A DNA stretch of 64,000 nucleotides from Catajapyx aquilonaris (Eukaryota), in contig JYFJ02002012.1 of assembly GCA_000934665.2 (NCBI GenBank), positions 1-64,000 on the forward strand. Reading direction: 5' to 3'. This document shows positions 944 through 63,620 of this stretch, piece after piece. The notes under the pieces were generated by a model that saw only the letters and a program-made list of their open reading frames with translations, was not told the origin of the DNA and did no database searches. Both the position numbers and the translations under genes were made by a program. Position 1 is the first letter of the stretch. The number at the start of each line of letters is the position of its first letter.

Positions 944-1232
944 GATGAGGAGGTGGATGGAGAGTTTCGACGTCCTCGAAACCGAGCATTGTCGGCGACG
1001 TCTCTTCGGCGACTGAGCGTCGCTTCTCATATGGGAACCAGCACTAGAGCAGTTGGTACACCTTCTTCTCCAGGATCAAGAAAGTCTTCCTCTTCTTCTT
1101 CCGCCACAGTCACTCCTGCGTCGCCACCTCGCCAACATCACTCGCACCATCATCATCAACAGCAGCAACCTCCATCATTGCTGTACCAGCCACAACAGCA
1201 ACAACAACCACAAACTGAATATCATCAGCAAG

Positions 1233-1286
<54 letters not shown>

Positions 1287-1354
1287 CACGCCCACATTCT
1301 AGACGAAAATCATGCCCTTCCACTTCCGTTCATCGGATTTCAACCACTATATAA
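944..1354 (+). CDS. Terminal coding exon of an upstream gene (Ser/His/Gln-rich low-complexity C-terminus); product not identified
   Basis: Polypyrimidine tract and acceptor tttag|GAT at 943/944. Open frame DEEVDGEFRRPRNRALSATSLRRLSVASH...RISTTI* ends at 1354 and contains basic-Ser motifs (RRLS, RRKS) and polyQ. Confidence 0.6.
1235..1285 (+). repeat. (CAA)17 microsatellite encoding polyglutamine
   Basis: Uninterrupted CAA run inside the 944-1354 exon. Confidence 0.95.
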
Positions 1355-3391
1355 CAATACCAACCACTCCATTCACAATATTCATGTTGTTGTCGAACAT
1401 GACGAGACTGATGTTCGGTAATTTGACGATATCGATATGGTTTTTCTTATCGATTGACATTTTATGTACATATAACTATGTGTGATTGTATACGAAAGAG
1501 TGCAGTATTTCAAAACCATCTTATATATAAATACATATACAATTTGACTGTTGATAATGTTACGGTTTTATCACGTATAGGCTACTAATTCGACAAGTTT
1601 CGTAACCTGAAAATGTCGCCTGTATGTAGAATGCGGCGCATTAATCCAGTACCTTTGCCGTAGTGACCAAAGTGTAATTGCGGTAAGTCCCTATAAATTG
1701 TCTAAGCAAAAAATGGAAAACATAAATTCATTACAGTTCCAATGACGTTTTACAAAACGACATCTTAATCTCTTGTATTAGCATTTCAAATTTTGGGCCA
1801 TCAAAACTTATTAGAGAGGAACTACTGCATTGCGTACAGAACAATAGCGTAAATCTTCCTGAATACCGTGTATAGTTTTCACTGAGCGTCTTGCAATCAT
1901 TCCGCACACCCTGAGACTGAATGTCATAAACCTATACACTTCTCTCAGACCCTGCATTTAGGGTATTAAACCTCATATCTATGCAACCACAAAGATCATT
2001 CTGTGCTGAATCTTCTCCCCTTCAGGGTCCAATTTTGGATAACTTACAAGTTAGTACATTCGCCCACCCTTCTTGGCACCTTGATAAAATATACTGAGCA
2101 AGTGAGACCATTGGAAGTCACAACAGCTGAGGTCATTACGTCAAATCGCTTGAATTTATTCAACTGTCTCTTTCCACGACCGTTTACTTCTGGTTGTGTT
2201 TCATTACGGTGCCGTAATTAGATTAAGGCTACTTCCGAAACTTCAGAAAACTGAGGGATTCATTTTTCAGACATTAAACAAGTATCAAACAGATGCCCTT
2301 ACCTTAAAGACTCAAGTCCAAATCAGAATTCATTCTTTAATATTTCTAATTTTTTTTATCAATGCCACAAAAAATTGCTTATGTTTCATACCCTACTCAA
2401 CTAAGGCACATCAAAACTAATTACATCACCAGTCACAAATCCATGGCAAAGACTGTCAAGTTATGTATCTTTGGCACTAAGCTAGTTGCAACAAAATTGC
2501 AGTAACACAAAGCATCATTTATCCCGGAAGATTACAGTCAACTATGATTGTTAGTAGATGTTCTTTTTTTAAAAGAAAAAAAGAGAATCATTATCCTTTT
2601 GTCGTGTGCTGGATAAACTTTCATCATTATGGTGTGGTGCTGTATTTCAATGGAAGTATCATGTTTCTTCTCATCAGCTGTTGTAAAAGTTCTGTCAGTG
2701 GTCGTTGGTAAGCAATGGCTAATAATAACTCGATAAGCGAGCGACAAGGTAACTTTCTGGTAAAATGGGACCACGATGGTATGAAGAATTATTTTGTACG
2801 ATTTCTCTATTTCTGACCTCTTGTCTTTTCGGATGGATGCATAGTGAATATCTCAATAGAAAACTACTGTAACGTTCATAGTGGAATTTTTTACAGCTAA
2901 TCTTTTGCCTCTGTTCTGTATCACGTTTGGTATATTCGGTAACATTCAACTGATAACATTTCTTAAATTGTTCCTGTGCATGTGTTACTATTCATGTTCT
3001 GAAAAGAATTTACATCTCGACATAATAACACCCTCTTCTCTCTTGGTGTCATTTTTAGGAAGTTTGAATATTCTTTTCTTCCGACGACTGAATGTAAATA
3101 TGTCAAATTTTCTGGTCTGTTTCCTTCATTAAGCAGGTGCACGGTCTTATCTTAGCCCATTGTTCCGTGATAATGATTAGTAGAAACGTTCTAGTTTCAT
3201 TCCCCCCAGAAGAGGTTTGTGTATAGTACCATGATAATGAGAAGCTTTCGGCATTGTCTTAAAATGCTGTAACTGAAATATTGATGTCAGAAACCTTGGA
3301 AGTTTCAGGTTTATAAAGCATCCATTAATGTCGACGTAGTTTTAACAACAGTCTTATGTTTCGTTAAAATTATAATGATATGGACGATATA

Positions 3392-3748
3392 CAGGGTAGT
3401 GGGAAAGGTACCATTTCGAATTCCTTAAGGCGAAATTACCCTCGTTGATTTTGTAGGTGTGGCTCTATTACTAAGATATTTGCAGGCTAAATTAATTAAA
3501 CCATTTTGGCCCTTTCAAATTGCACACATGCATAATAGGGTCACGTTTATCAGGCGACCCATGTAGCAAGACATGTCATGGGTTGGCATATAACCCACTG
3601 TATGACCTCCATTACATACACCTGTAACCTTAACATGAGATATTAGCATAATGAATTCAATATTGCCAAAGTCAAATAGGGTCATTTCGCATATCTCAAG
3701 TTACCTATAGGTCCGACAGAAGAGCCTATCACCTTATCCACCATCCTC
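3392..3748. mobile_element. Possible degenerate Tc1/mariner-type MITE
   Basis: TA-CAGGGTAGTGGGAAAGGT at the left and ACCTTATCCACCATCCTC-TA at the right form an imperfect inverted repeat flanked by TA. Confidence 0.35.
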
Positions 3749-6006
3749 TATACACGTTAAGTATCAGCATTGTAGTTGAAGGTTGAAGTTGTTTTTTTTG
3801 AGAACTGTAGCGGGGGAACGACCTACATGACAATTGCATGATTTAATTCAGTAAATCATTTCTGTTTGTGCAATTAGCAATGTACTGCTCCTCATTGGGA
3901 TGTTTTGCACCACATGACTAGTAGGAATGTAAATTGCTACGTTTCAAGAAAGAAAAAAAAACCTTCAGCTTTACTTTTATGTAGGTATTTGAATAAAACA
4001 ATAACATGCAGAACTGGGAAAAAGACACTGTGCAATTAAAGCACGTTATAGGCACATGAAACCGGTAGAATAGCAATGGGAAAAAGAACTAGGTATTTAT
4101 GAGAAAATTGCAATTTTTGTATAAAACAACATCATTTATGGGGTTTTTCGGAAAGGTCAGCATGTAATTATAGCAGGACATCTCATTAATTAATGCTGCA
4201 AAAATATAATACAGACAGGTAAACACTACAGTAATGTCAACGACCTCATTTTAAAAGCAGCAAGCTGTATGCAATAGTAACTATATATACATCACGGCAG
4301 TAATGTTACTGTTAATCCCAGCATTAAATTATAGAAGACCAGGCATGGCATTCAACACATCCTGTGGAGCAATAACTAACTCGAATGAAAGCTTAATTGG
4401 CATCGATAATACTATGAGACTTATTCCCTTGGGAGTTATGCCATTATTTGGGTACAGTCTTTAGTCTTGCGATGCATTTATTCGTGCTTTGTTTGAACAA
4501 ATGCATAGTCCTTCCACGTGAACGGATACCTGCCAATCACTGTAGGTAATGATACTAATGAGTAATGATGAACCTGTATTCTGCTTTCGACAGAATCATT
4601 GGTGCGAGAATTGAAGAGGGGTCAGAATTTTTAAAAATGTAAATCAAGCACAACTCCACGCTTCTATTTAAGGGATCATAATTTTCTGGTATAGAGTGTA
4701 TACCAACAAAACAGGGTCGTTATGTGGAAATTGTAACTTGCATATTGTACACTGGTACAGTACTTCTTATGGTTAATAATATATAATAAACGTCTTTTAA
4801 CTTTGACTATTTTATTTGCAATGATATAATAGCTATATAATTATTCTTTGCAGTTTTCATACATGATATGTTTCATTACTACATCCTGCATAACATAATT
4901 GTGTCATTGATGTACAGGAACAAATAGTTATATGTGCTCCTATATACAAAGGTGAGTAATAATAATTGACATTTACGACTAGTTCATACTAAGAGAGAAT
5001 GAACTTAATTCCTACTTCAACTCCGGAGTCATTAGTGGTAATCTAATATGGTACTGAATTTATTTGCACTATGGCGACTCATAGGACAAGAGAACGATAT
5101 TAGGACCTAAAATACTCCACATGTATTTATCACACCTACATCAATGCTTAAAGTATGATTCGCGCGTTATTTTTCTCTTGATTGTATACAGTGCACGGTA
5201 CAGTATAATACTAATTCTAAGCCCCTGAGTATAGTGGGCCATATCTGAGGCAAATGAAGAGCATGGGTTATCTGCCATCCAGCAAGGCAAAGGAACAACA
5301 ACGCGACGAGAGTCAACATCAGATGTGGATGTCACTTGTTGTAGAAAGTGCTGTCTATAAAAGCTGCAGCACAAGTTGAATATCTCTTCTCGGAAAAACT
5401 ATTTTGCTGTAGTCATATTACAAGGCAAGTTCAATAATTACGTTATCTGCAAGTAGTGACACATATCTGTGTATGAATATTGCACTGGAACCAAACATGA
5501 TTAAAGACACGAAATACTTATGAAATCGACCTGAAATAATCCGCGTAACCGGCTTGTCACTCTTACCATTCATTTTAATATTCGGCTAGTTTTATTCAAG
5601 TTTTAATACAAACTAAACGGAGACCACGATCAAATTCTTCAACCATCTGCCAAAAAGCATACTAAATTTTTATGGTATTTAAAAATATTCAAAATGATTG
5701 AGTTATTCTTTGTAGGCTACCAGTGTATCATTGCTCTTGCACACATTGAAATTCGGTTGCAACTGAACGACCAATTAAATCGCAATTCCAAGATAACCAC
5801 AGTCAGTTGGCATTTAGTCTCCATATTGCTTGTTATCATCCACCTGTGCAAGTTTATCGATTTCACCTGACCAAAACAATGCAGAAACGCAACAAATCAG
5901 AACGGCAATGAAGTGGCTCACTTATTAGGCTACACTATGCCCATGTACCTGTAGAATACAATTTTGGCGTTGCAAAATCTGTCGCTTTGTGGACGAATGG
6001 GGTAGT

Positions 6007-6061
6007 ACCACGAGTGCACAACCGACCTCGTGCAGGTGCAGGTCGGTCGTGCACTCGTGGT
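6007..6061. repeat. GC-rich hairpin (22-bp arms, 1 mismatch, 11-nt loop)
   Basis: ACCACGAGTGCACAACCGACCT ... AGGTCGGTCGTGCACTCGTGGT. Confidence 0.85.
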
Positions 6062-6358
6062 GCAGGGCCTACGTTTTTAACAACAAACTAAAAATCTGCG
6101 AAAATAAAGGAGAGTGACATAACTTACGCCGGCTATCAAGTGTCTCCGAAGATGGTCTGCAGGCCCGAGGTTCAGAGCAGAGGTCACGGACCTCTTACCG
6201 GATGAGAAGGTCAGCGACAGGCAATCTGAAGTTGTGAAGTGAACTTTGCCAGGTCCCCCTACATTTGAGCAGGCCGCGAAGGCATTGCCAACGTTACTGT
6301 GATCCTACCTGTTTACAGCGATGGGAGTGGGGCAGTTGCCATCCCTGCGGAGGAGAAG

Positions 6359-9300
6359 ATGGCGGAGGTGGAGGAAGAGCAGGGCTCACTACAACAACAC
6401 CCTAAAAAGCGGGCCAGGAACCCAACAGGCGAGTGGAGCTTGGTCGCCTCTTGCTCTCAGCTGCCATTCCCTCCTCCATTCGGCACCGAATGACGGTGCA
6501 ATGCCGGGCGCAAGGGTTATTGCTGCTATGAACCTGTTTCGCCTGTAGATTGTTGCCCTCATAGACCCAGTAGAAGACTAAATAAATTGTCCATGTATAG
6601 GCTTGAGGAATGTACCTGGCAATGTACAGTTAATCAAAAAATTGTTTGTCCGCAGAGCTCAGGTGTGACTGTATAGCGAATCTCATAAAAATTTTATGTT
6701 GGGTTGGATGTGCAATGCCGGATCATTAGAGGGTGGGTTGGTTTATGTACGTTTCAAAATATTCCACATGAACTTGATCCATGTCATTGATACCATGAAC
6801 AGCATCCAACTTGACATGGCATAGACCCATGATTCATTTACCGTGGGATTCCCCTGCCCTTTTGTGGGGGTCATCAAATTTTATTATTCTAGGAAATGTC
6901 CGATTATTGTAAAACTATTTTTTGTCATTCCAAAAATGATATAATTATTTTATGACCTAATTGAATATATTCGTGGTATATAATAATGCTTTCTTAAGAG
7001 CAGATGTTTGTTGCAAATACGAAGGTGGATCAAAAAGTAATTGACAACTTTTTTAATTTTGAAGCTACACAACAGAAACTGAAACTGAGATATACATATG
7101 AAAGGGCAAGTCATTCTCTAATTTATAGTCACCATGCACTTTGGTGCACTTGTCCAAGGGGTACACTAGCTTTTCCATGCCACTGCAGAAAAAAAAGTCA
7201 GGCTGGATGGGAAGCCAGCAGCGGATGGCCTCTCTCTCTTCCTCGATGTCGCTGAAGTGCTGACGGGCCAGGTGCTTCTTTCTTGGTCCAAATAGATGGT
7301 CTTAACCACCTTAGGACAGAAGCCCTGGCTTGTCAAAACCTCAGCAACATCGAGGAAATGTCTGGGGGGTCAGAGACGGAGGAGACCCTCTTGACCCAGG
7401 CAAAAGGGAGCTCCCGGGCGGGGATCGAACCCAGGACCTTTTGCTCAGCAAGCTGAGTCGTTACCTACTCAGCCACCATGCCTCCCCCATTTCGTACATA
7501 CAGTATATCTCAGTTTCAGGTTCTGTTGTGAAGCTTCGGAATTTAAAAAGTTGTCAATTACTTTTTAATTTGCCCTCGTAGTAGGAAGTAGAATTTGTAA
7601 CAAAAATTGAGATTTCTACAACAGTGTGGAATAAAAGGGGAACTTATTATTAACTTAATCACTTAACGCATTTCTTGAAGCAAGGAAAATGCTAACTGTA
7701 CTGTGCAGTACTCTTATTCTTTGATGGTGAATTATTATTGATATGATTAATTATAAATAATATTATGTTTTAGCAAAAGATATTCCTGCACCATTATAGC
7801 ATAGTCAGAAACTCCAGTTTCATAGACTTGCTCATATATCTGGAACAAATCTTTGGAGACAATAGGAGACTGAATTATCAAAGCAGACTGTGGCTGTACT
7901 GTGTACATATGGTATTGTAATTAATCTACCAGCAAGGCAAATTTATATAGTTAATTTTTCAATATCATGTATAGGTTATATATTTATAGGTGTGTGATTT
8001 AAAAGCCTGACATATTGTTTGTTCATTGCAGAATGGAAGAGAGAAAAGAGGAAAAGGCTGCGAATTGCAGGCCAGGAGTACATCAACAGCCGTGGAGATT
8101 TGGTGCAGGCAAGGAGCATTGGAGATGACTGCAAATGCCGACGAAAGTGCTACACCAAGGCAGGATTTTATTTCTATCACTGTAGTATTATAAGCATGGA
8201 TCTGACCCTTGCATGTGTGTATAAATGATGCATTTATGCCAGTTGATTTTTACTCAAAATTGTGGCTAAGTTATATACCACTTTCAGGTATCAGAGGAGA
8301 ATCGTCTTCAGCTCTTTGAAGGCTATTATGACCTGAATTCACATGATGAACAGAATGCCTATCTATATGGCCTCATCCGCAAGCATGACATTGCCAGAAA
8401 GCGAAGCAAGAACAGTGACAGACGCACCTGCACATACAAGTATTTCGTTCGCCTGAGAGGCAAGGAAATACAAGTGTGTCGCCTAGCATTTGCTCACATT
8501 CATGGAATTTCACCACACAAGATACGAATACTCTGCCAAAAGATGGACCAAAACATCATGTACCCAAGGGACAGGAGAGGGAAGCATGACAATAGGCCCA
8601 AGAAGATTGCAAAAGAAACAATACAGCACATCAAGGAACATATATATTCAGTTTTGAGGTCAGATAGAGTGAGAGACTTTGTGAAAGAAGAGAAGAATAA
8701 TGGACCCGACGTCAACATCACTAGGATGTGGAAAGATTACCTGTCTAAGTTAGTGATTATGCTGTTTCATGACATTCGATGGATTCCTTTTCCTGTCTCT
8801 CGCCTTATTGAAAGTTAAATGTATATCTGCCACATGTCATGAAAAATTTACATGCTTTTTATAATATGGAAAGGTTAAATTAGCTGATATGATTTTTTTT
8901 TTGCCCATTACGGCTTTAAAAAATTAAGCAATTTCTTGGCTTCATTTGTTACTCTCACTTATTCACACTGCCTTGTGTTCTTTCATTTTGCAGATACGAT
9001 CCACAGTTCCATCTCTACACCAGTCATGGTCGCAGTAAAAACCGACTGTGGGCAGAACCAGACACCATGGCCTCCGAGATGGACATTGTAAATGCTGCAA
9101 ACCCTTCGTCATCCACTGATACAGCTCTTGATATTGACCATTTAACAGACCGAGAGCCATTGTCTTCTGATTCTGAAATTGATTCAGATTCCAATTCTGA
9201 GTTGGAGTTACAGAGGCCTCAACTACAACACCAGCAGCAGCAACTCCCTCAATCTCCAGGCACAGCAGATTCAGCTTCAAAAGAAAGGGACACAAAAAAG

Positions 9301-9747
9301 AAGAAAAAGAATATTCTGGAACCAGCCGTTAAACACTGGCTGTACAGCAAAGTATTCCATGAGGAATTCAAGTTCCATGATTTTTTGCAGCTCAAACGAC
9401 GCTTGTGGGAGGTAAAGTCTGGCACCACACCTTCACCAAGTAAAACTGGGCAAGGGTCATCAGCTGCAGGGAAGTCAGAGAGGAAACAAAAAACTCCTAA
9501 AAAGATTCTGAGGGACAAGTTGGAGATGGATCAGGGTGAGGAGGTACAGCTGACAGCCGCAGATATAGATGAGCCTATGATTACCATAGGAAATCCAGTG
9601 GTCACCAATCCTGGTGCAGCAGACATGTTCATCTTGCCAATTGGGATCCCAGAGCTCAGTTTGCAGGGGTATCAGCCCGGGATAGTCAACCTTGGAGGAG
9701 TCAGTGTCAATGTCACAGAACCTGGTGGCACTTATTATTACCAGTGA
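6359..9747 (+). CDS. Spliced ~470-aa protein derived from the N-terminal Cys-containing region of a Sola1-like DNA transposase; no catalytic domain
   Basis: Exons 6359-6428, 8032-8159, 8288-8748 and 8994-9747 join in frame (1413 nt); the first two introns have GC donors. Protein reads KKRARNPTEWKREKRKRLRIAGQEY..CKCRRKC..EQNAYLYGLI..VCRLAFAHIHGIS..DRRGKHDNRP..ITRMWKDY..LYSKVFHEEF, a motif order I recall from Sola1/DUF7869-type transposases. An acceptor at 6318 means the true start may lie upstream. Confidence 0.7.
7018..7580. mobile_element. Non-autonomous mariner-derived element in intron 1, interrupted by a SINE
   Basis: Ends TACGAAGGTGGATCAAAAAGTAATTGACAAC ... GTTGTCAATTACTTTTTAATTTGCCCTCGTA. 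The left arm is homologous to 11071-11371. Confidence 0.8.
7411..7488 (-). mobile_element. tRNA-derived SINE head
   Basis: The minus strand has an A-box-like TGGCTGAGTAGG and a B-box GGTTCGATCCC at Pol III spacing, but no good cloverleaf. Confidence 0.6.
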
Positions 9748-11070
9748 TGATCAGGTGATTATTATTTTGATTTCCTTATTTCTTGTGATACTCGAAGATG
9801 CCTTTTTTCATTATTTGTTGATGTAATTTTACTTTCACAGGTCATCTGTTATATGGCTATAAGAATATTAAGAAATGGATGGAGAGCTTATAAAAAAAGC
9901 AATGGCTCTCGCGGTCTGTTTCCTACCATATGAAGACCTGCCTCATTTAGGAGACTTTACCAGCAGTCGGGCTACTGCTAGCATAGTTCTCACAGTCTTC
10001 GAAGCATGGAAGCACCACTGCCATAGCGATGAGAAGATGCCAGTGTGGAACCGGAGTGATGGTTGCATTATTTACTACCTCAACTGTCACCATCAGAAAG
10101 TGATTAATGGAGTATTTCTAACCCTCCATGTCCCACCGTAAGGAGTTTGTGCATGTGCAAAAATAGGAAATGAGTTTTTTTTGGGAGAACAGGGCTAACC
10201 TTTGGTAAAGAACTGAAGAATTTGCATTTTAATTATTGACATAGACTCATAGAGAAATAGAGGTTCTGTGACCTCCCACTAAATGGACTCAGACTACAAC
10301 AGAATGTGCCATTGGTGACACTTTTTATGACTTGCCAGTTCAAGGCCATCAAAATAAAAGAGAAGTGGTTGAAAATGCACTTTCCGATTCTACAGTACCT
10401 CCTTTTTTTGAGACATTACTGCAAGGCCAGTATTTTAAAGTGAAATTCAATTTAATTGCCATTAAAATAGTGATTTACCATGGCTCCCTATAACAGTTTA
10501 CTGCGAATAATTGCATAGGTAGCCTACTAGTTGTCATTATGAAAATAGGCATCTGCAGAGTTACCAAGCGAGGGATAATGAGGGTGAAGTAGTGTACAGA
10601 ATCAATCTAGCATTAGTAGGGCAATTGATCTCTCTAGAATGCAAATCCTCATTTAACACTATGAATGCAAAGCAGCGTGATCTGTCATTCCAAAGGCCCT
10701 CTAGTTCACTCTAATCAGGATGAAATTGGAAAACACTACTACAGTAGTACTGTAGAATAGAGCCTGTTTACAGTGTAGCATGGTGCCAGGCAAGTGCTAC
10801 ATCGTTTCCAGTCACCACCCTTGTATTAATTTATTGTGGGGTTAATATTTTACATTGCTTTGTGCAGCCTCAAATATGTGATGCATGACTACTTTCAAGT
10901 AACCAAAATGATTGCAAGTCAAATTTCTTGTGTGGTGACAACTGTGTGTGCCATGAAATTCCGATAAATCTTGAATAATGATTTATATTGCAAAATACGT
11001 AATAACATGTGTAATATTGAAAACGAGGTAACAATTAGAGAAATGAATGCTGTAAGCAATATATTACTAC

Positions 11071-11826
11071 TACGAGGGAGAGTCAAAAAGTAATTGCGTA
11101 ATTTTTTTATTCTGAGGTTTCACTAGAGAAACTGAAACTGAGATACAGTATACATATGAAAGTGCAAGTCTTTCTCTAATTTTAGACATAGTCGCCATAC
11201 AATTTGGTGCATTTGTCCCATCAGGACACGAGTTTTTCCATACCCCTGCAGAAAAAAGCATCAGAATGGGTGGGAAGCCAGTGGAGGATGGCCTCCTTCA
11301 CTTCCTCGATGTCTCTGAAGTTCTGACCTGCCAGGTGCTTCTTCATTGGTCCAAAGAGGTGGTAGACCATGGTTAAAACCGTCTTTTAGGACCAAAAAAG
11401 AAGCAGCTGGCAGGTCAGATCTTCAGCGTGGGTGGGAAGCCAGTGTGGGATGGCCTCTTTCACTTCCTCGATGTCACTGAGTTCTTGAGAAGCTAGTGCT
11501 TCTTTTTTGGTCCAAAGAGGTGGTTGTACTCATGGTCTACCATCTCTTTGGACCAATGAAGAAGCACCTGGCAGTTCAGAACTTCAGCGACATCAAGGAA
11601 GTGAAAGAGTCCATCCCCCACTGGCTTCCCACTCAGTCTGATGCTTTCTTTTGCAGGTGTATGGCAAACCTCATGTCCTGATGGTACAAATGCACCGAAT
11701 TGTATGGCGACTATGTCTAAAATTAGAGAAAGACTTGCACTTTCATATGTATATCTCAGTTTCAGTTTCTTTAGTGAAACCTCTGAATTAAAAAATTACT
11801 CAATTACTTTTTGATTCTCCCTCATA
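11071..11826. mobile_element. Fold-back mariner MITE: two inverted copies of the transposase 3' end plus TIR
   Basis: Arms 11071-11371 and 11531-11826 are inverted repeats with TA at both ends. The right arm encodes HLFGPMKKHLAVQNFSDIKEVKESIPHWL..FFCR, the mariner transposase C-terminus. Confidence 0.9.
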
Positions 11827-12436
11827 TGTACAAGATTGTACTGTCTAGCATTTGTGCGTTGAATTCTGGGACTAGTTTGTTGCACCGTGACTTGCCAGTG
11901 ACCGTGATTTCTGTACATTTTGTTCATCCTCTTTGTACATGTGCTTCATTGTAGTGAGACTAATTATATTGATCTCTTTTGTGATCATATTGTAATAATT
12001 ATGATTGTAATATGTAAATCATGAATATTGGTACCAGTCTGACTAAACCTTGCAAGTAGTGACCCATGCCTAAGAATATCAGACACATAGATATTGGCAT
12101 AGTCTAGCAGAACCTTTTAATGGCATCTGGCTTTTCGACATGTGACCAATCATTTCACATCATTTGTCATTGTCCCTCAACATACACATGCAAATTTTAA
12201 TTGTAGCCTAACGATGTTGCATACTTACCATGTTTGGTCTACTTGTACTTTTATGTCACTTTTCTTTTATCTAAGTTCATTAGCATATTGTAAAATGACA
12301 AACAGAGTCTCAATATATGTTAGATATATTTATTTGATTTTTATAAAATAAAGAGAACAGCATAATACATGTAACGTCTGTCTACTCTGCTACATTCGCC
12401 TATAGGTAAAATACTGAGACTAATCCAGTACAGGTA

Positions 12437-13423: not shown

Positions 13424-16400
13424 ATGAGGCTTGTGATCCTCGAGTCCACGGACAAGGTGGCAGAATGGGCGGCCAAGTATGTGATGAAGCGTATCAGGGA
13501 CTTCAAGCCTGGGCCGGACAGGTACTTCGTCCTCGGGCTGCCCACAGGTAATTAGGATTGTTAATTTGGGGGGTGTCATTCACATGGGAACGAGTCAAGT
13601 GAACCGGGTCCACTTATAATAGATGCAGTGTTGCCAATCCCCCAAAAAATGAGTGCACAGTAAGTAGGGGGAAAAAAATCATTGAAATTGACATATTGTG
13701 TGTCGCAGTGATGCTGTACTTAGCACTCAAAAAGTCTATGGAATGCTGAATATATGCCCTTTCATTGTGGATAGCCCCGTGGAAAGATAGTGCAGTTGCC
13801 ATGTGCTTTGTGGGGGTCGATGACACGGATGTATGCCGATGAAAGGGAATTATCATTTACCTCTGTATGATACCAAGAGCTGATACATAAACATTGCAGC
13901 ATTTACATATCAGATACCGGACCAACCTTGACATATCAATGTGGGGCATCATTACAGGAACCTATATGTCCTAGTATCGGACAGACCATCAGGTCGGTGA
14001 TGGGGATTAAGAGACTTTGATAAAGAATAAGTGCAGGTGATCAGAAATAAAGCCGTTCTGACACTTAATTGTCACTAGATGAGGAAACCTCTCACTCAAG
14101 GAAATTTGACATAGTTTTCAATTAGTCAGAAAGTAAATCAGTTTCGGAAGTCATAATGACTTATTCACAAGTCAGCAATGTTATTGTCACACTTTGAAGG
14201 TGCAGGAGTAACCTACTTGAACATTTCTAACTAAAGCATACATGTGTATGTGACCTCACGAGAAGTCACGTACCTGGCTAAGCATCATGTGCATAATGAT
14301 AGACAACTGTGGCCTATTTGTCGATGTAAAAATTGAATATGTATGTCCATCAATGAAATGAAGTATGAATAATGCATAATATTATTCTAAATACATGAAT
14401 TTCTTTTAAGTACATACATGTACATATTTTGCCAAGTATGTGAAAAGTCATCTCAGAAGAACTCCTAACTTGATATTTAAATAATATGATATGATTGACT
14501 CTCATGTATCAATATGTAAATTGCTAGGTACAAAATAAATGTAGGTTTTCAGCAGTGAGAAGTACTGGAGGTTTGCAAATATTGTAAAATAATCCACAAA
14601 AAATTAATATTGGGATAATAAAATGCATACCCTCAGACCTTATGGTAAATGCAACAGAATTTTCATAACATGTTTTTTTTTTCTGTTTTTGCAGGAAGCA
14701 CACCACTTGGGATGTACAAGAAGCTGATTGAATATCACGAGCAGGGAAAAATTTCCTTCAAGTTTGTTAAAACTTTCAACATGGATGAGTATGTTGGTAA
14801 GGATAAATAGCCAACAATCCCCTCGTAATCAGGTGTACATTATGGCAATGGCCAAACCTGTTTTACTTGAAATCTCAGTTGATCCTAAATATATTGCATC
14901 ACAATTACATTCAAAGCTTACTGAAGCAATCATTTTGTTCTGACATCTAAATAGTTGTTATTTCTTGATCTAGGCCTCCCACGCAACCATCCAGAGAGCT
15001 ACCACTATTACATGTGGAATAATTTCTTCAAGCATATAGACATTAATCCTGAGAATGCGCACGTCTTGGATGGAAATGCAGAAGACTTGGATGCAGAGTG
15101 CAATGAGTATGAACGCAAGATCACTGAAGCTGGAGGAATTGAGCTCTTCGTCGGGGGAATAGGGCCTGATGGGCACATTGCGTTCAATGAACCAGGGTCA
15201 TCCCTTGTGTCCAGGACGAGGCTCAAGACTTTAGCCCAGGACACAATTGAGGCCAACGCAAGGTTTTTTGACAATGACTACTCAAAAGTTCCCAAGCAAG
15301 CCTTAACAGTTGGAGTTGGAACTGTCATGGACGCAAGAGAGGTTAGAGTAGTGTAGTAACCTCTGTCACAAATGTCATAGCCATAGGTCATGCTAAGGTA
15401 ATCCCCATCTGTCACAGCAGGCTCGTAGGGCCAATCTAGTTACAGTACAGAGAGGAAGAATAGTTTTTCCAGACACAAAAACCTAATTGCCTAAGCTGGC
15501 AAATTCTCACATTTCACTGGTTTTGTGTGATCACAGCAAAAAAATACTGCATTAAAATTGTCATCCCCCTGTCACAATTATGATGGATATTTGGTTACTA
15601 GGATTTCAACAACGGTGAACTTTGTATTTGCCTGAGGGTGCGATACGGAGAAATAATGTGTAAGCGATAACATGCATAGTTTTGCGTTTTAGTGTGAGCA
15701 ACATCAATGACCTTCAAATTGGATGCATGTTGGACTCTGGCACAATAACTGCTGTTGATGCACTTTATTGCGCTCAAGTCCCCCTAAAGGCCTAACACGC
15801 TATGAGGTAAAATTTTTAAAAAATAAAAAGTTGCACTCAAGTTAATGAGAAAAAGTCAAGCCACAATTGGTAATGAGTCAGAATTATTGCAACATTCGGT
15901 CGGATGGTGATGTGGGCACTCTTTCTGACAACATGGATAATATAGCACATTTGAGGTTAACCATTGAGAACGTCTTCGTTTGATTCCTTCTGTGAATTTT
16001 TCTGTAAATTTTTTTAGCAAATAGCATGATCAGGAAAAATTAATTATGCACCAATGCGTCAGTTGGGGGCCAAGACTGCTTCCAAGAATGATTCACATCC
16101 TGGTTTCTTGAGGGGGACCTGAGCTTATCAGTTGTAGCTTGGTTGTAGTGATTCATGAACACGCAGAAATGTAAAGCTATTCTAAAGTGAAGCCAGCCTT
16201 CCTGCGACATTAAAAAAAAAAAGGAAAACAACCCGTGACTTGATCTGATTGGAGGCTCCTGAAAGGAAACCAGTCAAGCCTCGGTCACATTTTGGCCCCA
16301 ACTATGGACCGGTGCATAATTAATTTTTTTCTGATCATACTATTTGCTCAAAAAATGTGAACTAAATGTCATTTATCACAGAAGGAATCAAACCAAGATT

Positions 16401-25397: not shown

Positions 25398-26129
25398 CAG
25401 GGTGTCCCACTACTTCCCGAACCGGCAAAATGGCGCATAACTGGTAAACCACTTCATGTAGGGTGATGAAATTTTACGGGGACATAGCTTGATCCATGAG
25501 AAAAACTGGCTGCAGGTGTGTGCTGAGCGGAATAAGGCGCAAGCATGTACCGCTACACTCTGGAAGAGCGCGTGTTTCTGGTGCGCACGTACTGGAGAAC
25601 CCAGTCATTCAAGCAGTGTCAAGTGGAATTCGTGAAGAAGTTTGGTGGCCGGAAGCCTCCAGTCCAATCGTCTCTCCATGATTTGGCTACTTTCAGCAGG
25701 ACGGAGCAACATGCCACACATCGAGGGTCAGCATGGCCGTCATGAATTCCTTCTTCCCAGGCCGAGTCATTTCCAAGGGGATTTGGCCACCACGACCACC
25801 CAATTTAACTCCACCGGATTATTTCCTGTGGGGTTACCTAAAAGGACAGGTCTACAAAAAGAAACCAAGAACTATCCCAGCACTGCAGGAAAATATCCGT
25901 TCCGCAATTGAGGGGATAACTCCCGAGATGCTGGCCTGCACTTTCGCGAACATGGAGCGTCGTGTTCAGACCTGCTTGGACACAAACGGGGGCCACTTTC
26001 AGCATCTTCTATGACAATATGTTACTGTCACAGACCAAGGTATGTACCCGTAAAATTTCATCGCCCTACAGCAAGTGGTTTACCAGTTGTGCGCCATTTT
26101 CCCGGTTCGGGAGGTAGTGGGACACCCTG
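25398..26129 (+). mobile_element. Internally deleted Tc1/mariner-superfamily transposon (maT/rosa-like)
   Basis: TA target duplication and ~85-bp TIRs (CAGGGTGTCCCACTACTTCCCGAACCGG... / ...CCGGTTCGGGAGGTAGTGGGACACCCTG). The N-terminal piece MYRYTLEERVFLVRTYW is joined out of frame to FQQDGATCH..WPPRPPNLTPPDYFLWGYLK..GGHFQHLL. Confidence 0.93.
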
Positions 26130-26586: not shown

Positions 26587-28246
26587 CTACTGGAAGTGAT
26601 CCTTGATGATTTGTTGTTGGATTACTTCTCCCTTACACCGCAATGTTTCTGCTTCTTCATCTTCACAATATGGTCCAAGCTCTGGGGGTGGAGGTTGGGT
26701 TGGTACAGGAATTTCCCCTTCTTCACAAGGGTCTGGAACACCATGTGCAATGCATATGTTGTGGAGAGCAGCACAAGCGTTGATAATGTTTCCCACTTTT
26801 TCTGGGCTCAGATGTATTGTGAAATGCCGCAGAAGGCACCGGAACCTGGATTGCAGCAAGTCAAAGCATTCCTCAACGCATCTGCAAGCCTTGGAGTGTG
26901 CAGCATTAAACCTTGCTTCTGGAGAGTCCAAGACAGTTGGTGGATCCTCGACGGGAACTATCAGCCATGGTTCCAATGGAAAATCTTGGTCACCTGCACC
27001 AAATACCAGTAATCAGCATAACTCATCAAAGAAAATGGCATACCAATAAGATCACCAAGGTGTTTAGGGTAGAATCATTATTTTGGAGGTTAATCTATGT
27101 TAAAATGCCAATGATGACAGAAATGTTCTGAATTCTGTTGGATTCAAGGTGTTGGCCACTTGGGCAATAAGATATACCTTTCTCACGTTATCACACAAAA
27201 TTATCGGTTATGGATCATGATCCTTATGGAAAATGATTGTGCAATCATGAGTAATTGTTATCAAAGAGGAGTGACCATCTCCTCAACATTGTATAGATTG
27301 GCATTGTACAAGTAGTAAGCACTGCATATGTTGTGTAAAAACTGCTGTCAGATTCTGAATTAACTTAAAAGCAAACTTACCTATCAACCATTCATCTTTT
27401 CCGAGGCTCCCCTTGGCAAGGTGGTCTCGCAACAAACTAAACTGCCATATCATGCCATCACAGACTGACCCAGGATGCCGAGCTGAAATCCAATTGATCC
27501 TTTTGTTGACATCACATACCTGCAGCATTTAAGTGTATCATTAATTTCTCTTTAATGCAACCATTCATTTGAAACTGGCTGGAATGCCTACCACCAATGC
27601 ATTTATGGAGTCACTGCCGTGATCACACTCCTGCGCAGGCTGCTCCTTTGACCCTCGTAACGTTGGTACAAGGTTTGCCAGGCGTCTTCCATCAACCACA
27701 CCCACCACACCAGGGAATCCAATCCTGCTAAATCCCTCCTTAACCCTAAGCATATTCTCATGCGTTGTAGGAAACTTTATCCATTGCGGACAAATAACCT
27801 TGCCAATAGCTTGAGTGACAGCATTAACTGCCCTGCTGACCGTTGGTTGCGGTACTCCATGGAAGATGTTGCACCCAACGTCAGCCTGGTATGACCCCGC
27901 AGCATAAAACCGCAGAGCAATCAGAACCTGCCGGGTGTATACAAGAAGCTTTATTACCAGTGAAGTTCATGTGTGGGCATATACCGACCTTGGTCTCAGT
28001 GCTGAGAGTGACCCTTGTGGGCCTTGCAGGCTCCAGCTCTGACCTAAGCTGGTCACACACATACTGCACCAGTGGCTTCGGCAAGCGGTACTCCCTCCTG
28101 AAGGCCTGGTCCGTCAGCTGTCGGAAAGGGTCAGCCCTCTCTGAGAACCTCCTGGTCTTGCTGGTGAGGTGGGAGAACAGCCCCACTGCCAGCTGCAGGT
28201 CCTCGTCATCCCTCGCATACCTGGTGTCCCACACACTCCAGGACAT
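26587..28246 (-). CDS. Harbinger/PIF transposase-derived nuclease, HARBI1-like (~379 aa, 4 exons)
   Basis: Exons 28246-27989, 27927-27592, 27519-27381 and 26993-26587 are all GT-AG and in frame. Motifs F..EYRL, VLIALRFYAAGSYQ, QPTVSR, FPGVVGVVDG, ARHPGSVCD, LIGDQDFPLEPWL, FNAAHSKACRCVEECFDLLQSRFRCL and IINACAALHNICI. Confidence 0.88.
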
Positions 28247-33000: not shown

Positions 33001-34663
33001 TTTTTGGCCCATTCTCTGATAGATTTGGGCGAAGACAGGCCATCCTTGTGGCCACGACATGCACTGTCCTTAGTTCGATGACCAGTGCATTCGCGCCCAA
33101 CTACGCGTCCTTGGCTGTCCTTAGGTTCCTGGTCGGATTAGGAATTGTCGGAATGTACGCCTGTGCCTTTGTCTTAGGTAAGAAATGCTCCACATAATTT
33201 TGATGTATGTTGGAAAAAATAATTCACAACTTTTATACTGGCCATTTTCAGTTGAATGTTACACTCTGTAATGTAAAGAGATTAATAGCGTTGTCTCTTC
33301 TGTTCAGTTGCTGAGATGTCACCAGACCATAAGCGGACAACGTGTGCCTTTGTCTTCGACATATTCACAGCCTTGGGAAGAGCCACAGTGGGCGTGATTG
33401 CCTACTTCTTCCGCGACTGGAGGCAGCTCCTGATGGCCTTTGCTCTACCCAGCCTTTGTTTCCTCACCTTCTTCTGGTTCGTCACGGTTTACGACGCAAT
33501 CTATAGGAACGTGCTATGAAACAGTAATTATTTGTGCATCCTATTTTCTACAGGGTGTTACCAGACTCAGTCAGATGGCTGCTATTGAAAGGTCGGTTTA
33601 AAGAGGCTGAGAGAATTCTGAGAACTGCGGGTAAGATCAACGGGAAAGAGCTGCCTAGTTCGCATGAAATCAGAAGCATGATGGAATCTCTTCGTCAGAA
33701 TGTATGTGCCGTACTGTTTCAAAACGTGTATACCGATTTTGTCAGCTTCCACTTTGCAGGAGCTAGGTGACGATACTGAAGAAGTTGAAGACACCAGGTC
33801 CAAAAACTGCGGGCTTCAAATATGGGTGTTTGTCAAAAGCCCGGAGATGAGACGACGTAGTCTGCCCATGCTTTTCTCCTGGTTCACCCTGTGCTTCGTC
33901 ACCCAAGGGCTGGCCTTCCATTTCGCTCGACTGCCCTTCAGCCCCAATCTTGCCCATGTCATTAACGGAACAGCGTTGGTTATGGCAAGAATTGTCATAG
34001 TCTTCTGGCCTCTTCCGGACATTCTGGGTAGGAGGATGTCATACTCCGGATGCTTCCTTCTTGGAGGTCTTGCAGGGGTACTTATCCCGGCTGTTCCTGC
34101 AGGTAATGAGTAGCCTGTCAATCATAGTGTAGCAACATCATCATCTCGCATTCTTCACCTTGTCAGACTGGGGGTGGTTAACAGTGACCTTGACGCTGTC
34201 TAGTAGCATCCTGGTGACCCTGGCATTTACACTGGCGTTTTTGTACACTGCTGAACTCTTTCCGACCGAGGTCAGAAATGCGGCCATTGGACTTGGGTCA
34301 CTCAGCGCCAGGATTGGGGGAATGGCAGCCCCTTTTGTTGTTGACCTCGGGGTAATATGTAATATCCGGTACAGTATAATCAACAAATTGCATTAGAGAT
34401 TATCGCCTGTACTTACCCATGTAGTCAGCCGGATAATCGCGTGATGCAATTAGCGGATTATACTTAATATTAATGAAAAGGTCCAACACATTCGCTAATT
34501 CTGATCATTTTTGCAGGGTATGTACCATGCGGCGGTGCCCAGTGTTGTGTTTGGTGCATTTGCTGCTGCTGCAGGCTTCCTTTGCTTGTTGTTGCCAGAG
34601 ACGAAAGGGAAAAGGTTACAAGAGACTGTGACGCAAGTGCAGGATGATGACTGTTGTCGGTGA
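30054..34663 (+). CDS. SLC22/Orct-like organic cation transporter, copy A
   Basis: Exons 30054-30277, 32351-32528, 32919-33177, 33308-33476, 33554-33701, 33760-34102, 34167-34351 and 34517-34663. Motifs G.FGRYQ, PDHWC, TEWELVC, SDRFGRR, PDSVRWL, AELFPTEVRN and LPETKG. Confidence 0.93.
31365..32035. mobile_element. piggyBac-type non-autonomous composite element in SLC22-A intron 1
   Basis: TTAA duplication at 31361-64 and 32036-39, termini CCCTTAACTACGTAGGTGG ... CCACCTACGTAGTTAAGGG, and additional internal TIR copies. Confidence 0.85.
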
Positions 34664-35160
34664 CCTAAGGGTCGGAACCAAGTGTCTCATATTAATATTG
34701 TGTGGCAGGTTCCTTTTATCTGTCTATGACAGTTGCCTGTTACATGTTAAAATATTGTAAATAGCTTCTTGCACAACCAGTGGTAATGAAGTGTTCCTGT
34801 CAGTTGCAAAATTAATAAAATCATAGTCACACTCCATCTATTATATTGCAAACGCATCCATGAGTCAAGGTCAGCCAAGGCAATGCATAACTACTATATC
34901 TTCAGGAGGTTAAAGCTTTCTAATTTGATCTGCGAAAATAATTGATCCCTGATTATAGTTTCCCAATAGACATGAATTGTTATTGATTTTCCGCCATTCA
35001 TTCGATTAGTTTAATTAAAATATTGATTTGCAGAAATATGTCGACCATTGCCCTGAGTATTAGTTCATGTGTTCAGACGATGACCTGCAGTAGTAGATAA
35101 TTATCTGCACTGAACCCACTGAAAATATACAACTGGAAATTGCTATCTGGATGTTCCACG

Positions 35161-35880
35161 TCGGGGAAGTACCAGTGGGCAATGCTGATGGGGGTGGCCT
35201 TCCCTGGGATCATCTTCATCTAGACAACTTCGGGATGGTCTTCGGGACAGCGGTACCGGACCTTTGGCTGCCAGAAGGGTTCAGAGAGACCAACTGGACC
35301 ACGGAGAAGATCAAACGAGATGCGATTCTAAGGTGAATATTTGCTTTTTTTAAAAAAGAGTGTTTCATAATTTATTGAGCTTACTTTCGATGGCGCGGAT
35401 GTTTGCACATGATGTGAACTCACATATACCAGAAAGGTAGTTAAGTTATGTGGTATAATAGTGTAACTCACCGCCACAATTTGAAGATGAGGCATAATAG
35501 AGCGTTGCATGCCTTGGATGCTGACCTGTATGCTATGTGATACCTATTTCTATTTCATAACATGCTTGGTATGTCTTGAAGATGATAACATCTTCCTGGG
35601 ACACTTTGTGTAACTGATGGTGAAACAGTCTTGTGGCTCTCAATTGTTTAGCAATAGAGTCTTTGCACAGCGTCTTGTTCATCTCCAGTCGCAATGATTT
35701 ATGAGCGCCAAGAAGTTTCTTGAGCATGGCAGACTATACAGTATACCGTCTTGTGCGTGGTGTGATGTTTGAAGTGCTTCCTTTTTTGTGTGGAACCATT
35801 TTTCTTCAATCATCGCAACGTACATCTTACCAAACGTTATATTAACGAAATGTCCGTATTAAGCGTTTTGCTTCATTTTT
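35161..35880 (+). pseudogene. Truncated, frameshifted duplicate of SLC22-A exon 1 and adjacent intron
   Basis: 35161-35331 matches 30101-30277 (CAGTGGGC..CTGATGGGGGTGGCC..ACCAACTGGACCACGGA) with indels and an in-frame TAG. The following ~550 bp match intron 30278-30760. Confidence 0.85.
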
Positions 35881-36324
35881 AAAGGTGTTGCGTTTACTCT
35901 GAACATACCCTTATTAATGGGGATAAAATTTTATAATTCATGTGTCATTCGCACTTTGAAGCTGCGGCATTGCATTGACAAGATACGCAGCATTTATGTA
36001 CTGATGGGTGGTGCACTGGTGGACTAGCCAAGTTTTAATATCCATATTTTAAAATGTATCCCGATTACCGTGACCGTATGAAATGACCACTGCATCAACC
36101 ATGCAAATACACACACAAAAGTCCAAGGGTATATTACGTTTCGGATCAATCTACCCAGACTAGATCAAGGCAACGGCCATCAACACGCAAGTGATTGCAC
36201 GAGCATAAAATGTGTCACTGTACTAAAGCGTCCTGTAAGTAAATAACAAAAAGGTCGTGATCTACAGACACTTCTATAGGTCAACATAGCATGCGGGGTG
36301 GTCAGTGATAAGATTGGCTGTGCA

Positions 36325-38846: not shown

Positions 38847-39929
38847 TTTTAACATCTCTCAGTGTAGTTCAAATTCTGAATGTCATAAATTAAAATGTTA
38901 TTAAGTTATAGGTTTTCCATGCAAATGCATGATCTATACTTTACGGGTAGCCTATAAATTTATGTATTTGGAAATTATGATCGTCATATTATCTTGAACA
39001 AAAGCAATTTAGTCTATTACAACATACCCATCTGTGCTTTGCGAATTAAAATACTTCTTGATAATGCCAATTTATCAAGGATTAAGGATCAAGATTCAAG
39101 CGATTAGTATTGACTCACATTTGTCATTATTTTATGGAACGAGACGGGAAGTTAAAGTTAAAAAGCAATAAGAGCTTACTAAACTATTTAATGCGGCAAT
39201 GTCCTTTTTAAGAACAACACACAAACATATAATTATGCTAAATATTTGCCTTTCATGCGCCCTTCTAGTGTCATTCACCCTTAAAACAATTTCATTAACC
39301 TTTGGGCGAATATTCCCCAGTTTAAGAGGCATTGAGTTAAAACACTGAATAATAATACTACGATATTCGCATACAATGCATGCCACTCTCCGAGTTATGC
39401 AATGTATTGTTCATACATGCACAATCACATGCAAATAAATGTAACTGATCGGCGTGAAGAAGAATGCAATCAACATTTACACGCCTTAACTATATTGTAC
39501 TGTTTTGGCCAGTACGTAGCAATTGCGTTTTACTCTGTGTCTGTGACAACCAATCGTTTAATCCCCATTAATTTGTCTGGGTCTAGTTAGACTATGGTGT
39601 TACCTTGATCATTTTCAAATTTACTTGCACATGTGCACGTGTCGTCTGGATATTTCAGAATCCTGTAATGATTACAAATATATATATTTACGAGTGATAT
39701 TGGTTGATTACAACAGTTGCAGCTCATCGAAGCAGAGAGGAAAAGATCTACGATGCTGACTGCGCTTAAGGGCACCTGATTGCACCCAATTGAATGACGG
39801 TTGATGGAAAGATGTTGGAAGTCGTATCCTCTTACTGAACATTGCATAAGGATCGGAGTCTGTAACTTTCCGAGCCGTCAAATTGATTTGGAGAGAGATC
39901 ATCTTTGGGCAGAAGAGGATTGGGCCGCA

Positions 39930-63386: not shown

Positions 63387-63620
63387 ATGGCTGAGATCCT
63401 GCGCAGGCACTCTGCAACTGCGGTGCCTGAGATATACACTCACCAGCATGTCTCCATGGTTAAGTTCGCACCAATAACCACATGCGATGTGGAGAGGTCA
63501 TTTTCCACTCTCAAGGCCACTCTCAGTGAGAGAAGGCAGCAATTGACTGCATCAGATTTGGAACAAATAATTGTCTCGCATTGCCAATTCAATGAAAGTA
63601 GTGAAATTGAAGACTATTGA
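63387..63620 (+). mobile_element. hAT-type transposase C-terminal (dimerisation-region) remnant
   Basis: KFAPITTCDVERSFSTLKATLSERRQQLTASDLEQIIVSHC resembles the hAT C-terminal 'P.TS..VERSFS' motif. No upstream coding continuity is visible. Confidence 0.7.

Follow-up and report, generated by a model that had tools for sequence, protein, structure and literature searches.

Has the DNA at positions 6359-9747 of a 64,000-nucleotide stretch of the Catajapyx aquilonaris genome (contig JYFJ02002012.1, positions 1 to 64,000, forward strand; the whole stretch is hereafter designated the window) been left behind by a transposon, or is it a host gene built from part of one? The locus had been read from the sequence alone as a candidate domesticated Sola1-like transposase, in which the N-terminal module is kept and the catalytic core is replaced (hereafter the original prediction). 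We found that it is an intact, spliced gene with orthologues across Pancrustacea, and the explanation as a whole, namely a host gene derived from the N-terminal module of a Sola1-type transposase and likely encoding a DNA-binding regulator, appears probable. Taken separately, it is very probable that the gene is a domesticated Sola1-type module, and we lean, with less assurance, towards the protein being a sequence-specific DNA-binding regulator of host genes, a role predicted from its sequence.

Shared module and missing catalytic core

The joined frame extends from the ATG at 6359 to the TGA at 9745-9747 and comprises 1413 nt, that is, 470 codons with one terminal stop, in agreement with the intact four-exon frame of the original prediction; all seven motifs quoted for it were located in the 470-aa product (the window protein). 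A phmmer search with the translation of coding exon 3 (153 aa) against 1.84 billion cluster representatives gave 1408 representatives at E≤1e-3, 174 at E≤1e-10, and 16 at E≤1e-30. When 23 long matches (5 host-type and 18 non-host) were scanned with Pfam (gathering score for DUF7869, 26 bits), DUF7869 (PF25273) was above the cutoff in 14 of the 18 non-host proteins, always on the C-terminal side of the shared module; one of the others (P0035) had DUF7869 below the cutoff, and three had none. The host-type proteins P0003, P0010, P0014, P0027, and P0028 contained no Pfam family (0/5), and the four exon translations of the window gave only sub-threshold chance rows (RGS, SPOB_a, and UBL_ZFAND1). 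DUF7869 proteins thus carry the same N-terminal module upstream of the domain, whereas neither the window protein nor its orthologues match it.

In the window protein, residues 1-228 and the helical residues 326-356 correspond by homology to the N-terminus of the large family formed by the 1408 representatives, the alignment with its DUF7869 members running through RNPxxWKR, the Cys cluster, QNxYLxGLI, VCxxAFxxIHGIS, and RGKHxNRP up to a final shared segment, V(K/T)xxxYxxxFxxEF, which reads VKHWLYSKVFHEEF in the window protein. Past this segment, the DUF7869 proteins alone go on, with FGxPxxDTCxxC, FDxQQNLPLP, SDNCxxQNKN, and GHSxLPCDRxF; the CxxC motif and all three catalytic-acid motifs are missing from the host protein. 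Moreover, an Atlas cluster with DUF7869 in 80% of its members aligns to residues 12-220 of the orthologue P0003 (TM 0.64 by query). The relation of the module to DUF7869 N-termini, stated in the original prediction, is therefore borne out by phmmer, Pfam, alignment, and this structural link.

An unrelated low-complexity tail had been placed where the core would lie. The replacement of the core stood, and the description of the tail required correction. Since LYSKVFHEEF (aa 336-345, exon 4) aligns with the pre-core segment of the transposases, it is not part of a foreign tail; judged from the alignment, it is the last retained transposase piece, split from the module by a lineage-specific insert. 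In exon 4, the acidic, Ser- and Gln-containing insert (9019-9309, +) is followed by the conserved helical piece NILEPAVKHWLYSKVFHEEFKFHDFLQLKRR (9310-9402, +) and by a mostly disordered tail (9403-9744, +), which contains ERKQKTPKKI, DMFILP, and a terminal YYQ. The tail is not wholly unrelated sequence either, in that ERKQKTPKKI, DM[FY]ILP, and the terminal YQ are conserved in the insect orthologues.

A core profile searched against all six frames of the 64 kb, introns and flanks included, gave a best i-E of 1.7 versus 1.3e-62 for the module control, and it matched none of 63 host-list proteins. Module and core occur together in 110 of 116 transposase-type proteins. The module profile itself matched exon 2 (8028-8159, E 7.5e-16) and exon 3 (8285-8749, E 1.3e-62), and transposase-type proteins matched the window solely at 8016-8776 (10/10), that is, one copy in 64 kb. 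A scan for inverted repeats around 6359-9747 returned only two copies of an unrelated element resembling a miniature inverted-repeat transposable element (MITE), and no terminal inverted repeats (TIRs) of the gene. These results agree with the predicted replacement of the core, as judged by Pfam and by the six-frame core profile, and with the predicted absence of visible TIRs; in place of many dispersed copies with TIRs, the window holds one copy without flanking TIRs.

Exon structure and transcription of the gene

Transcript evidence was drawn from one public run (X1, 32 M letters), which covers part of the stretch and whose contigs match the window with 0 mismatches and leave out the introns. 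One of them, of 576 nt, links 6330-6425, 8029-8157, and 8286-8636, and transcript evidence begins at 6330. At the first joint (6425 to 8029), which skips 1603 nt, the junction can slide by 3 bases, and the +3 placement alone gives an AG acceptor; at the second (8157 to 8286), which skips 128 nt and also slides by 3 bases, the +2 placement gives GC..AG. Because no other placement yields an AG acceptor, introns 1 and 2 are both GC..AG, so that there are two GC donors among the three coding introns, both seen in spliced contigs.

Coding exon 1 (6359-6428, +) encodes aa 1-23 and the first base of codon 24, aligns with the N-termini of the orthologues, and specifies an acidic start followed by the basic KKRARNPT. 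Intron 1 (6429-8031, +; 1603 nt, GC..AG, donor CAG/GCGAGT) has a MITE-like insertion inside it at 7011-7587. Coding exon 2 (8032-8159, +; aa 24-66) supplies a basic arm (WKREKRKRLR), a hairpin-like stretch, and the Cys cluster CKCRRKC (aa 57-63; 8130-8150, +), and the motif RNPTEWKREKRKRLRIAGQEY of the window protein lies at aa 20-40. Intron 2 (8160-8287, +; 128 nt, GC..AG, donor AAG/GCAGGA) is followed by coding exon 3 (8288-8748, +; aa 67-219 plus 2 bases), which forms the module core with its beta sheet and contains EQNAYLYGLI (aa 87-96), the helix-turn-helix (HTH)-like VCRLAFAHIHGIS (aa 129-141; 8474-8512, +), the basic linker DRRGKHDNRP (aa 161-170; 8570-8599, +), and ITRMWKDY (aa 210-217), which closes the second helical subdomain. 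Intron 3 (8749-8993, +; 245 nt, GT..AG, phase 2, donor GTTAGT, acceptor ..GCAG) is bridged by none of the contigs listed; it is supported by the start of a contig at 8994 (with two loose letters at its start), by the reading frame, and by continuity of the orthologues across DYLSK/YDPQF.

Exon 4 (8994-9754, +; aa 220-470) ends with the stop codon and 7 nt of 3' untranslated region (UTR). Three X1 contig records cover 8994-9751 with 0 mismatches, and one contig joins 9687-9751 to 9838-10300 (cut +3), which places a spliced 86-nt GT..AG intron (9755-9840, +) in the 3'UTR, beginning 7 nt past the stop. A fifth, non-coding exon (9841-10300, +) therefore follows, and the transcript reaches at least 10300. 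The four predicted coding exons were thus correct, and this last exon had been missed. An 88-codon open reading frame (ORF) in it (9875-10138) has no Pfam match and no Atlas match and is treated as 3'UTR.

X1 depth is zero over the introns, except at the repeat at 7008-7583. From the exon-exon contigs together with the zero intron depth outside the MITE-like element, we infer an RNA origin of the contigs and hence a spliced mRNA. RNA-seq had been suggested as a check of the original prediction; the X1 contigs, although of unrecorded library type, are spliced and indicate that the gene is transcribed.

Orthologues and regional conservation

With exon 3 as the query, 20 proteins were obtained at E≤1e-3 among 107 candidates. 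Orthologues of ~500 aa from Blattella, Zootermopsis, Anabrus, Gryllus, Schistocerca, and Timema are 73-80% identical to the window protein on exon 3, and those of the decapods Penaeus, Macrobrachium, Scylla, Homarus, and Chionoecetes 57-62%. A full-length orthologue as the query gave 69 proteins at E≤1e-5 among 3772 candidates, adding ~35 Lepidoptera (~450 aa), the louse Menopon, the barnacle Pollicipes, the ostracod Notodromas, and the amphipod Hyalella. No match from Diptera, Coleoptera, Hymenoptera, or Hemiptera was among these 69, and, because the search was word-limited, their lack points only weakly to true absence. Two paralogues are present in each of Anabrus, Gryllus, Timema, and Menopon, and the orthologues are named 'uncharacterized' throughout in the databases. 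Since the closest orthologues of the window protein are those of insects, the reference to 'other crustaceans' in the original prediction was not borne out.

Judged by protein-level identity, conservation is strongly regional. Between Blattella and Zootermopsis, identity is 92% in the module, 96% in the helical piece 326-356, 58% in the insert, and 77% in the tail; between Penaeus and Scylla, the values are 94%, 100%, 87% (7/8 aligned), and 77%, respectively. Over longer distances, the window protein and Anabrus A share 74% in the module, 70% in the helical piece, and 11% in the insert, and the window protein and Penaeus 55%, 58%, and 25% (2/8 aligned). The acidic/Ser/Gln insert noted after ITRMWKDY proved real, with D+E 17, K+R 5, S+T 18, and Q 8 at aa 236-318; it is not present in decapods or in the 'B' paralogues.

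Relatives with the catalytic core

The nature of DUF7869 was examined with the relative P0047, modelled with 51 aligned relatives (mean predicted local distance difference test score, pLDDT, 83). Its core has a beta-beta-beta-alpha-beta-alpha-beta-alpha arrangement around D377, D454, and D496, which are invariant in the 51 sequences. Against the PDB, the Foldseek matches at E≤1e-3 numbered 9 and comprised TnsB transposases and foamy-virus integrase alone; lower in rank came Rous sarcoma virus and mouse mammary tumour virus integrases, Mu, IstA, and Mos1. The fold model and these matches together indicate that DUF7869 is an RNase H-like DD(D/E) recombinase core. At E≤1e-10, 256 relatives of P0047 were obtained, with PF25273 in 114 of 120 among the matches listed; these come from beetles, aphids, a mirid bug, Periplaneta, Lepidoptera, and a brittle star, and a species often has several divergent copies. 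Tandem module copies (2-9 per protein, mostly without the core) were seen in P0042, P0053, P0064, P0054, P0034, P0035, P0068, and P0143; these may be prediction run-ons over tandem elements or further multi-module domestications.

In a metagenome scan, copies of 80 DUF7869-type loci were compared and searched for TIRs bordered by the same 4 bp on both sides. Long TIRs were present in seven elements, six of which have AWWT target site duplications (TSDs), a class making up 3.2% of 4-mers in these loci: L019 (980-3868, AATT, 2889 bp), L023 (3002-7609, AATT), L028 (3502-8756, AATT), L032 (2409-5263, AAAT, 2855 bp with a 625-aa ORF), L049 (599-3445, AATT, TIR read by motif), and L061 (90-4643, ATTT). 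TIRs of the DUF7869-type elements are 29-37 nt long, with 31-37 matching bases in the first 45 nt in the five AWWT elements scored, and differ widely between families (GAGTGGC..., GAATACGCC..., and CGTCACC...). All six AWWT elements encode module and core, and the module profile matches each of these TIR/TSD-bounded elements (6/6, E 1e-25 to 1e-64). By tblastn, the window protein matched 58 of the 80 loci at E≤1e-5, including L019, L023, L028, and L061, and none past residue 272.

The remaining long-TIR element, L073, is GC-rich and of a distant DUF7869 type, in a group at 26-27% identity that also includes L074-L077; it has a second, crossing inverted-repeat pair and may be a different sub-lineage with another target preference. 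On the contig of L064, two diverged element copies (839-2026 and 3417-4926) are accompanied by a perfect inverted duplication of 113 nt (2351/4873) that reaches into the ORF, an arrangement that could be a nested insertion or an assembly artefact.

Several candidates were set aside. The first automatic TIR scan gave mostly noise. The combined TIR and TSD scan of the 80 loci gave 22 hits, 11 of which (L032 TGCA, L049 TGCG, three in L061, and six in L064) were discarded because the 4-mer was palindromic or the position lay inside a longer inverted repeat. L007, L021, L030, L039, and L080 were dropped because just 17-21 of 45 terminal bases pair, and the copy pairs L013/L016 and L021/L024 have no clear termini.

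Probable assignment to Sola1

Sola1 DNA transposons were reportedly described by Bao et al. 2009. In PMC3845634, AWWT target duplication is called 'a hallmark of the Sola1 transposons', which are described as having the 4-bp AWWT duplication and TIRs, with autonomous copies of 2.3-2.8 kb and a 630-aa ORF; in the classification of Majorek et al. 2014 (cited in PMC5751038), the curated Sola1 consensus proteins of Repbase/Dfam are class E.10. L032, with 2855 bp and a 625-aa ORF, fits this description of an autonomous copy, and the TIR of L019 resembles the Sola1_NA TIR published in PMC3845634 (score 11 versus 2.8±1.5 for shuffles, with a maximum of 8 in 500). The Sola1 label of the original prediction is hence upheld by way of hallmarks, being supported by the TSDs of six of the seven long-TIR relatives and by the L019 TIR.

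With its residues 1-228 and 326-356, the window protein matches the N-terminal third of the proteins encoded by elements that show these hallmarks. These elements have the core, TIRs, and a target duplication, whereas the gene in the window lacks all three; in further contrast to them, it contains introns, occurs once in the window, and is represented by orthologues throughout Pancrustacea.

Tree of the module

A module tree of 118 rows was built with IQ-TREE (quick, LG+G4) from 212 sequences, after 32 Lepidoptera had been thinned out and 62 sequences covering fewer than 165 of the 215 profile positions had been dropped. In this unrooted tree, one branch with a support of 98 by the SH-like approximate likelihood ratio test (SH-aLRT) splits 36 rows from 82. 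On the smaller side, the window protein is joined by 23 further host-type rows and by 12 that are short or unnamed; the larger side includes all 11 rows that have at least two catalytic motifs. Host branches are short (decapod ends, 0-0.044), and transposase ends are typically 0.3-1.0. The window protein adjoins the polyneopteran 'A' paralogues (support 94).

Predicted structure of the module

The orthologue P0003, modelled with 59 aligned sequences, reached a pLDDT >90 over about residues 20-230. The model has a basic arm, a hairpin, the Cys cluster, a helical pair, and a three-stranded sheet (residues 94-127), and, onward, a helix with VCxxAFxxIHGIS, the RGKHxNRP loop, and four more helices; the helices at ~320-356 have a pLDDT of 70-94, and the insert and tail <50. 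Among the 59 host and transposase sequences, C55, C57, C61, C128, Q86, L90, R101, Y116, F132, D159, R161, G162, H182, and I183 (P0003 numbering) are at least 90% conserved, their equivalents in the window protein including C57, C59, C63, C130, F134, D161, R163, G164, and H184. This conservation suggests a putative zinc site (CxCx3C...C/H) together with residues that may contact DNA or form a linker. The module is net basic (K+R 54, D+E 31).

The module has no Pfam family and no significant match to a solved structure, its profile giving only a Q-rich TBP row (E 0.19) among PDB sequences. VIA wide gave weak matches over residues 163-352 to cullin WHB, ArgR, TnsB, and P-element domains, and a second look with residues 80-349 gave TnsB residues 35-175 at Z 4.8-5.3, below the noise of ~7-8. 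The end-binding domains of the TnsB/MuA type share with the module the layout of two helical HTH-like subdomains joined by a conserved basic linker, which in the transposase relatives is followed by an RNase H-like core; the TnsB matches, however, have no counterpart for the Cys cluster and the beta sheet 94-127, and the similarity is below noise. Tc1/mariner transposases, too, have bipartite (paired-like) HTH DNA-binding domains of comparable layout.

Other features of the window

The MITE-like or foldback element is present as two copies in opposite orientations (7011-7587 and 11064-11833), ~580-770 bp long with 75-85-nt terminal inverted repeats; in the copy within intron 1, the 85-nt inverted arms lie at 7011-7095/7503-7587. 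X1 depth reaches 31 at 7440-7583 on this copy, with loose contig ends, and this pile-up identifies the element as a dispersed repeat. By eye, its ends (..GGTGGATCAAAAAGTAATTGACAAC..) resemble TIRs of the mariner type. The two copies were considered as TIRs of the gene and rejected, each having inverted ends of its own. A palindrome at 6007-6061, with 22-nt arms that are 95% complementary (ACCACGAGTGCACAACCGACCT / AGGTCGGTCGTGCACTCGTGGT), lies ~300 bp upstream of the ATG and precedes the first transcribed bases observed (6330).

Elsewhere, the window contains a GNPDA exon (PF01182) at 14955-15356, a PIF/Harbinger DDE_Tnp_4 fragment at 26587-27012 (-) (E 1.2e-15), an ORF at 25682-26014 (+) that resembles a mariner transposase C-terminus by eye and has no Pfam match at 1e-3, and a borderline hAT dimerisation-domain fragment at 63234-63620 (+) (21.0 bits versus a cutoff of 21.4). 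A run of ORFs at ~33600-52900 (+) has repeated exons resembling major facilitator superfamily (MFS)/sugar transporters, with PF07690 and PF00083 at 37392-38267; similar transporter N-terminal exons recur at ~36.3, 39.8, 44.6, and 50.5 kb, a recurrence that points to transporter paralogues arranged in tandem. A long CAG/CAA coding-like repeat (poly-Gln, or poly-Asn in another frame) lies at 944-1421 (+), near the left edge of the window.

Discussion

The intact spliced gene, the orthologues of the same architecture in distant taxa, and the loss of the core sustain the exaptation as a host gene that was originally proposed. The ancestor would have been the transposon-end-binding N-terminal part of a Sola1-type DD(D/E) transposase. 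What was retained would be the basic N-terminal arm, the Cys cluster, the two HTH-like subdomains, the basic linker P.D.RGKH.NRP, and the pre-core helical segment, while the catalytic region would have been replaced by disordered acidic, Ser-/Gln-rich sequence with a few conserved short motifs. Presumably, the protein enters the nucleus by way of its basic stretches and binds specific DNA through the former transposase module, and its disordered acidic/Q-rich parts may recruit partners, so that it would act as a regulator of transcription or chromatin.

Several observations weigh against this interpretation. The library type of X1 is unrecorded, and 'RNA' is deduced from its spliced contigs. 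The Sola1 label rests on TSD and TIR hallmarks from one paper (PMC3845634), and one of the seven long-TIR elements, L073 (104-3219), has a TIR matching at 36/45 positions but TGAC flanks, not AWWT. Foldseek with the P0003 model gave 0 matches at E≤1e-3, and the best Z of VIA wide was 5.5, below the noise of ~7-8, chiefly over residues 163-352 with little of 20-160. Finally, the tree, being unrooted, gives alone no proof that the host clade arose within the transposases.

The main alternative role concerns the same domesticated gene, whose product would be a catalytically dead competitor or repressor of Sola1 that binds transposon ends and not a regulator of host genes. Truncated P-element repressors act in this manner. 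The part kept by the host is the one that normally binds the element ends in DDE transposases, the best structural matches of residues 80-349, weak as they are, lie in the N-terminal, end-binding domains of TnsB, and DUF7869/Sola1-type elements occur in insect orders that bear the orthologues (e.g., Periplaneta and Diatraea). However, a module identity of 92-94% within orders, and of 55% between the window protein and a decapod, is hard to square with fast-evolving TIRs, and TIRs vary widely between the families, so that we consider a repressor role unlikely.

The reverse course, in which the host gene is ancestral and a Sola1-type transposon captured its DNA-binding domain, would fit the unrooted tree equally, as the host and transposase rows lie on either side of one branch. 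Descent from transposase to host is nevertheless preferred on the sequences at hand, because module and core occur together outside the arthropods, in the brittle-star (echinoderm) protein P0294, which is among the 110 of 116 transposase-type proteins with both parts; because all named host-type proteins found are pancrustacean; and because the host protein has retained the helices that lead straight into the CxxC motif and the first catalytic Asp in the transposases, as truncation of a transposase would leave it and capture of a host domain would not. Capture by a transposon thus appears very improbable. Lastly, a decaying or non-autonomous Sola1 copy, that is, a transposon fragment, is suggested by the finding that the detectable homologues outside the orthologue set are transposases alone, yet such a reading fails on the present data and is practically untenable, given coding and UTR introns spliced in X1, an intact 470-codon frame, no TIRs and no core remnant, and the presence in distant orders of orthologues built alike, whose short branches largely follow taxonomy.

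Significance of the probable domestication

Animal transcription and chromatin factors have repeatedly arisen from transposase DNA-binding domains, and host genes derived from these without an active core include CENP-B, the pogo-derived genes, THAP, ZBED, and host-transposase fusion transcription factors, the known source superfamilies being Tc1/mariner-pogo, hAT, P/THAP, PIF, and piggyBac. Like the gene in the window, CENP-B/pogo, THAP, and ZBED have kept an end-binding HTH or zinc module and lost catalysis, whereas their source superfamily is a different one. The term DUF7869 was not found in the literature searched, nor was anything relevant on domestication, exaptation, or co-option of Sola or Sola1 in that literature, supplements aside; the available text of the Repbase review lists Sola among the superfamilies and leaves it unmentioned among the domesticated genes discussed there. 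While the process leading from a transposase module to a host gene is well known, the domesticated Sola1 DNA-binding module and the gene family are apparently undescribed.

In a more far-reaching version, which we regard as rather improbable, domestication of Sola1 preceded the pancrustacean radiation, and gave a family of two paralogues that bind DNA sequence-specifically and still read Sola1-like terminal repeats dispersed through the genome, using them either as a permanent guard, catalytically dead, against transposition of Sola1 or as a ready-made cis-regulatory network. If true, this would trace a host gene family to the Sola superfamily for the first time, with a new DNA-binding fold that combines a Cys cluster with a bipartite HTH and has no Pfam family and no solved relative.

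Collectively, the gene would add Sola1, a little-studied superfamily, to the sources of domestication, and its retention in insects and crustaceans must span hundreds of millions of years. DUF7869 gains a concrete reading as the predicted DD(D/E) transposase core of AWWT-duplicating TIR elements, and the unannotated N-terminal module of ~230 residues is set apart from it as a separate, probably DNA-binding unit, the function of which should be testable in the cockroach, cricket, and moth orthologues.

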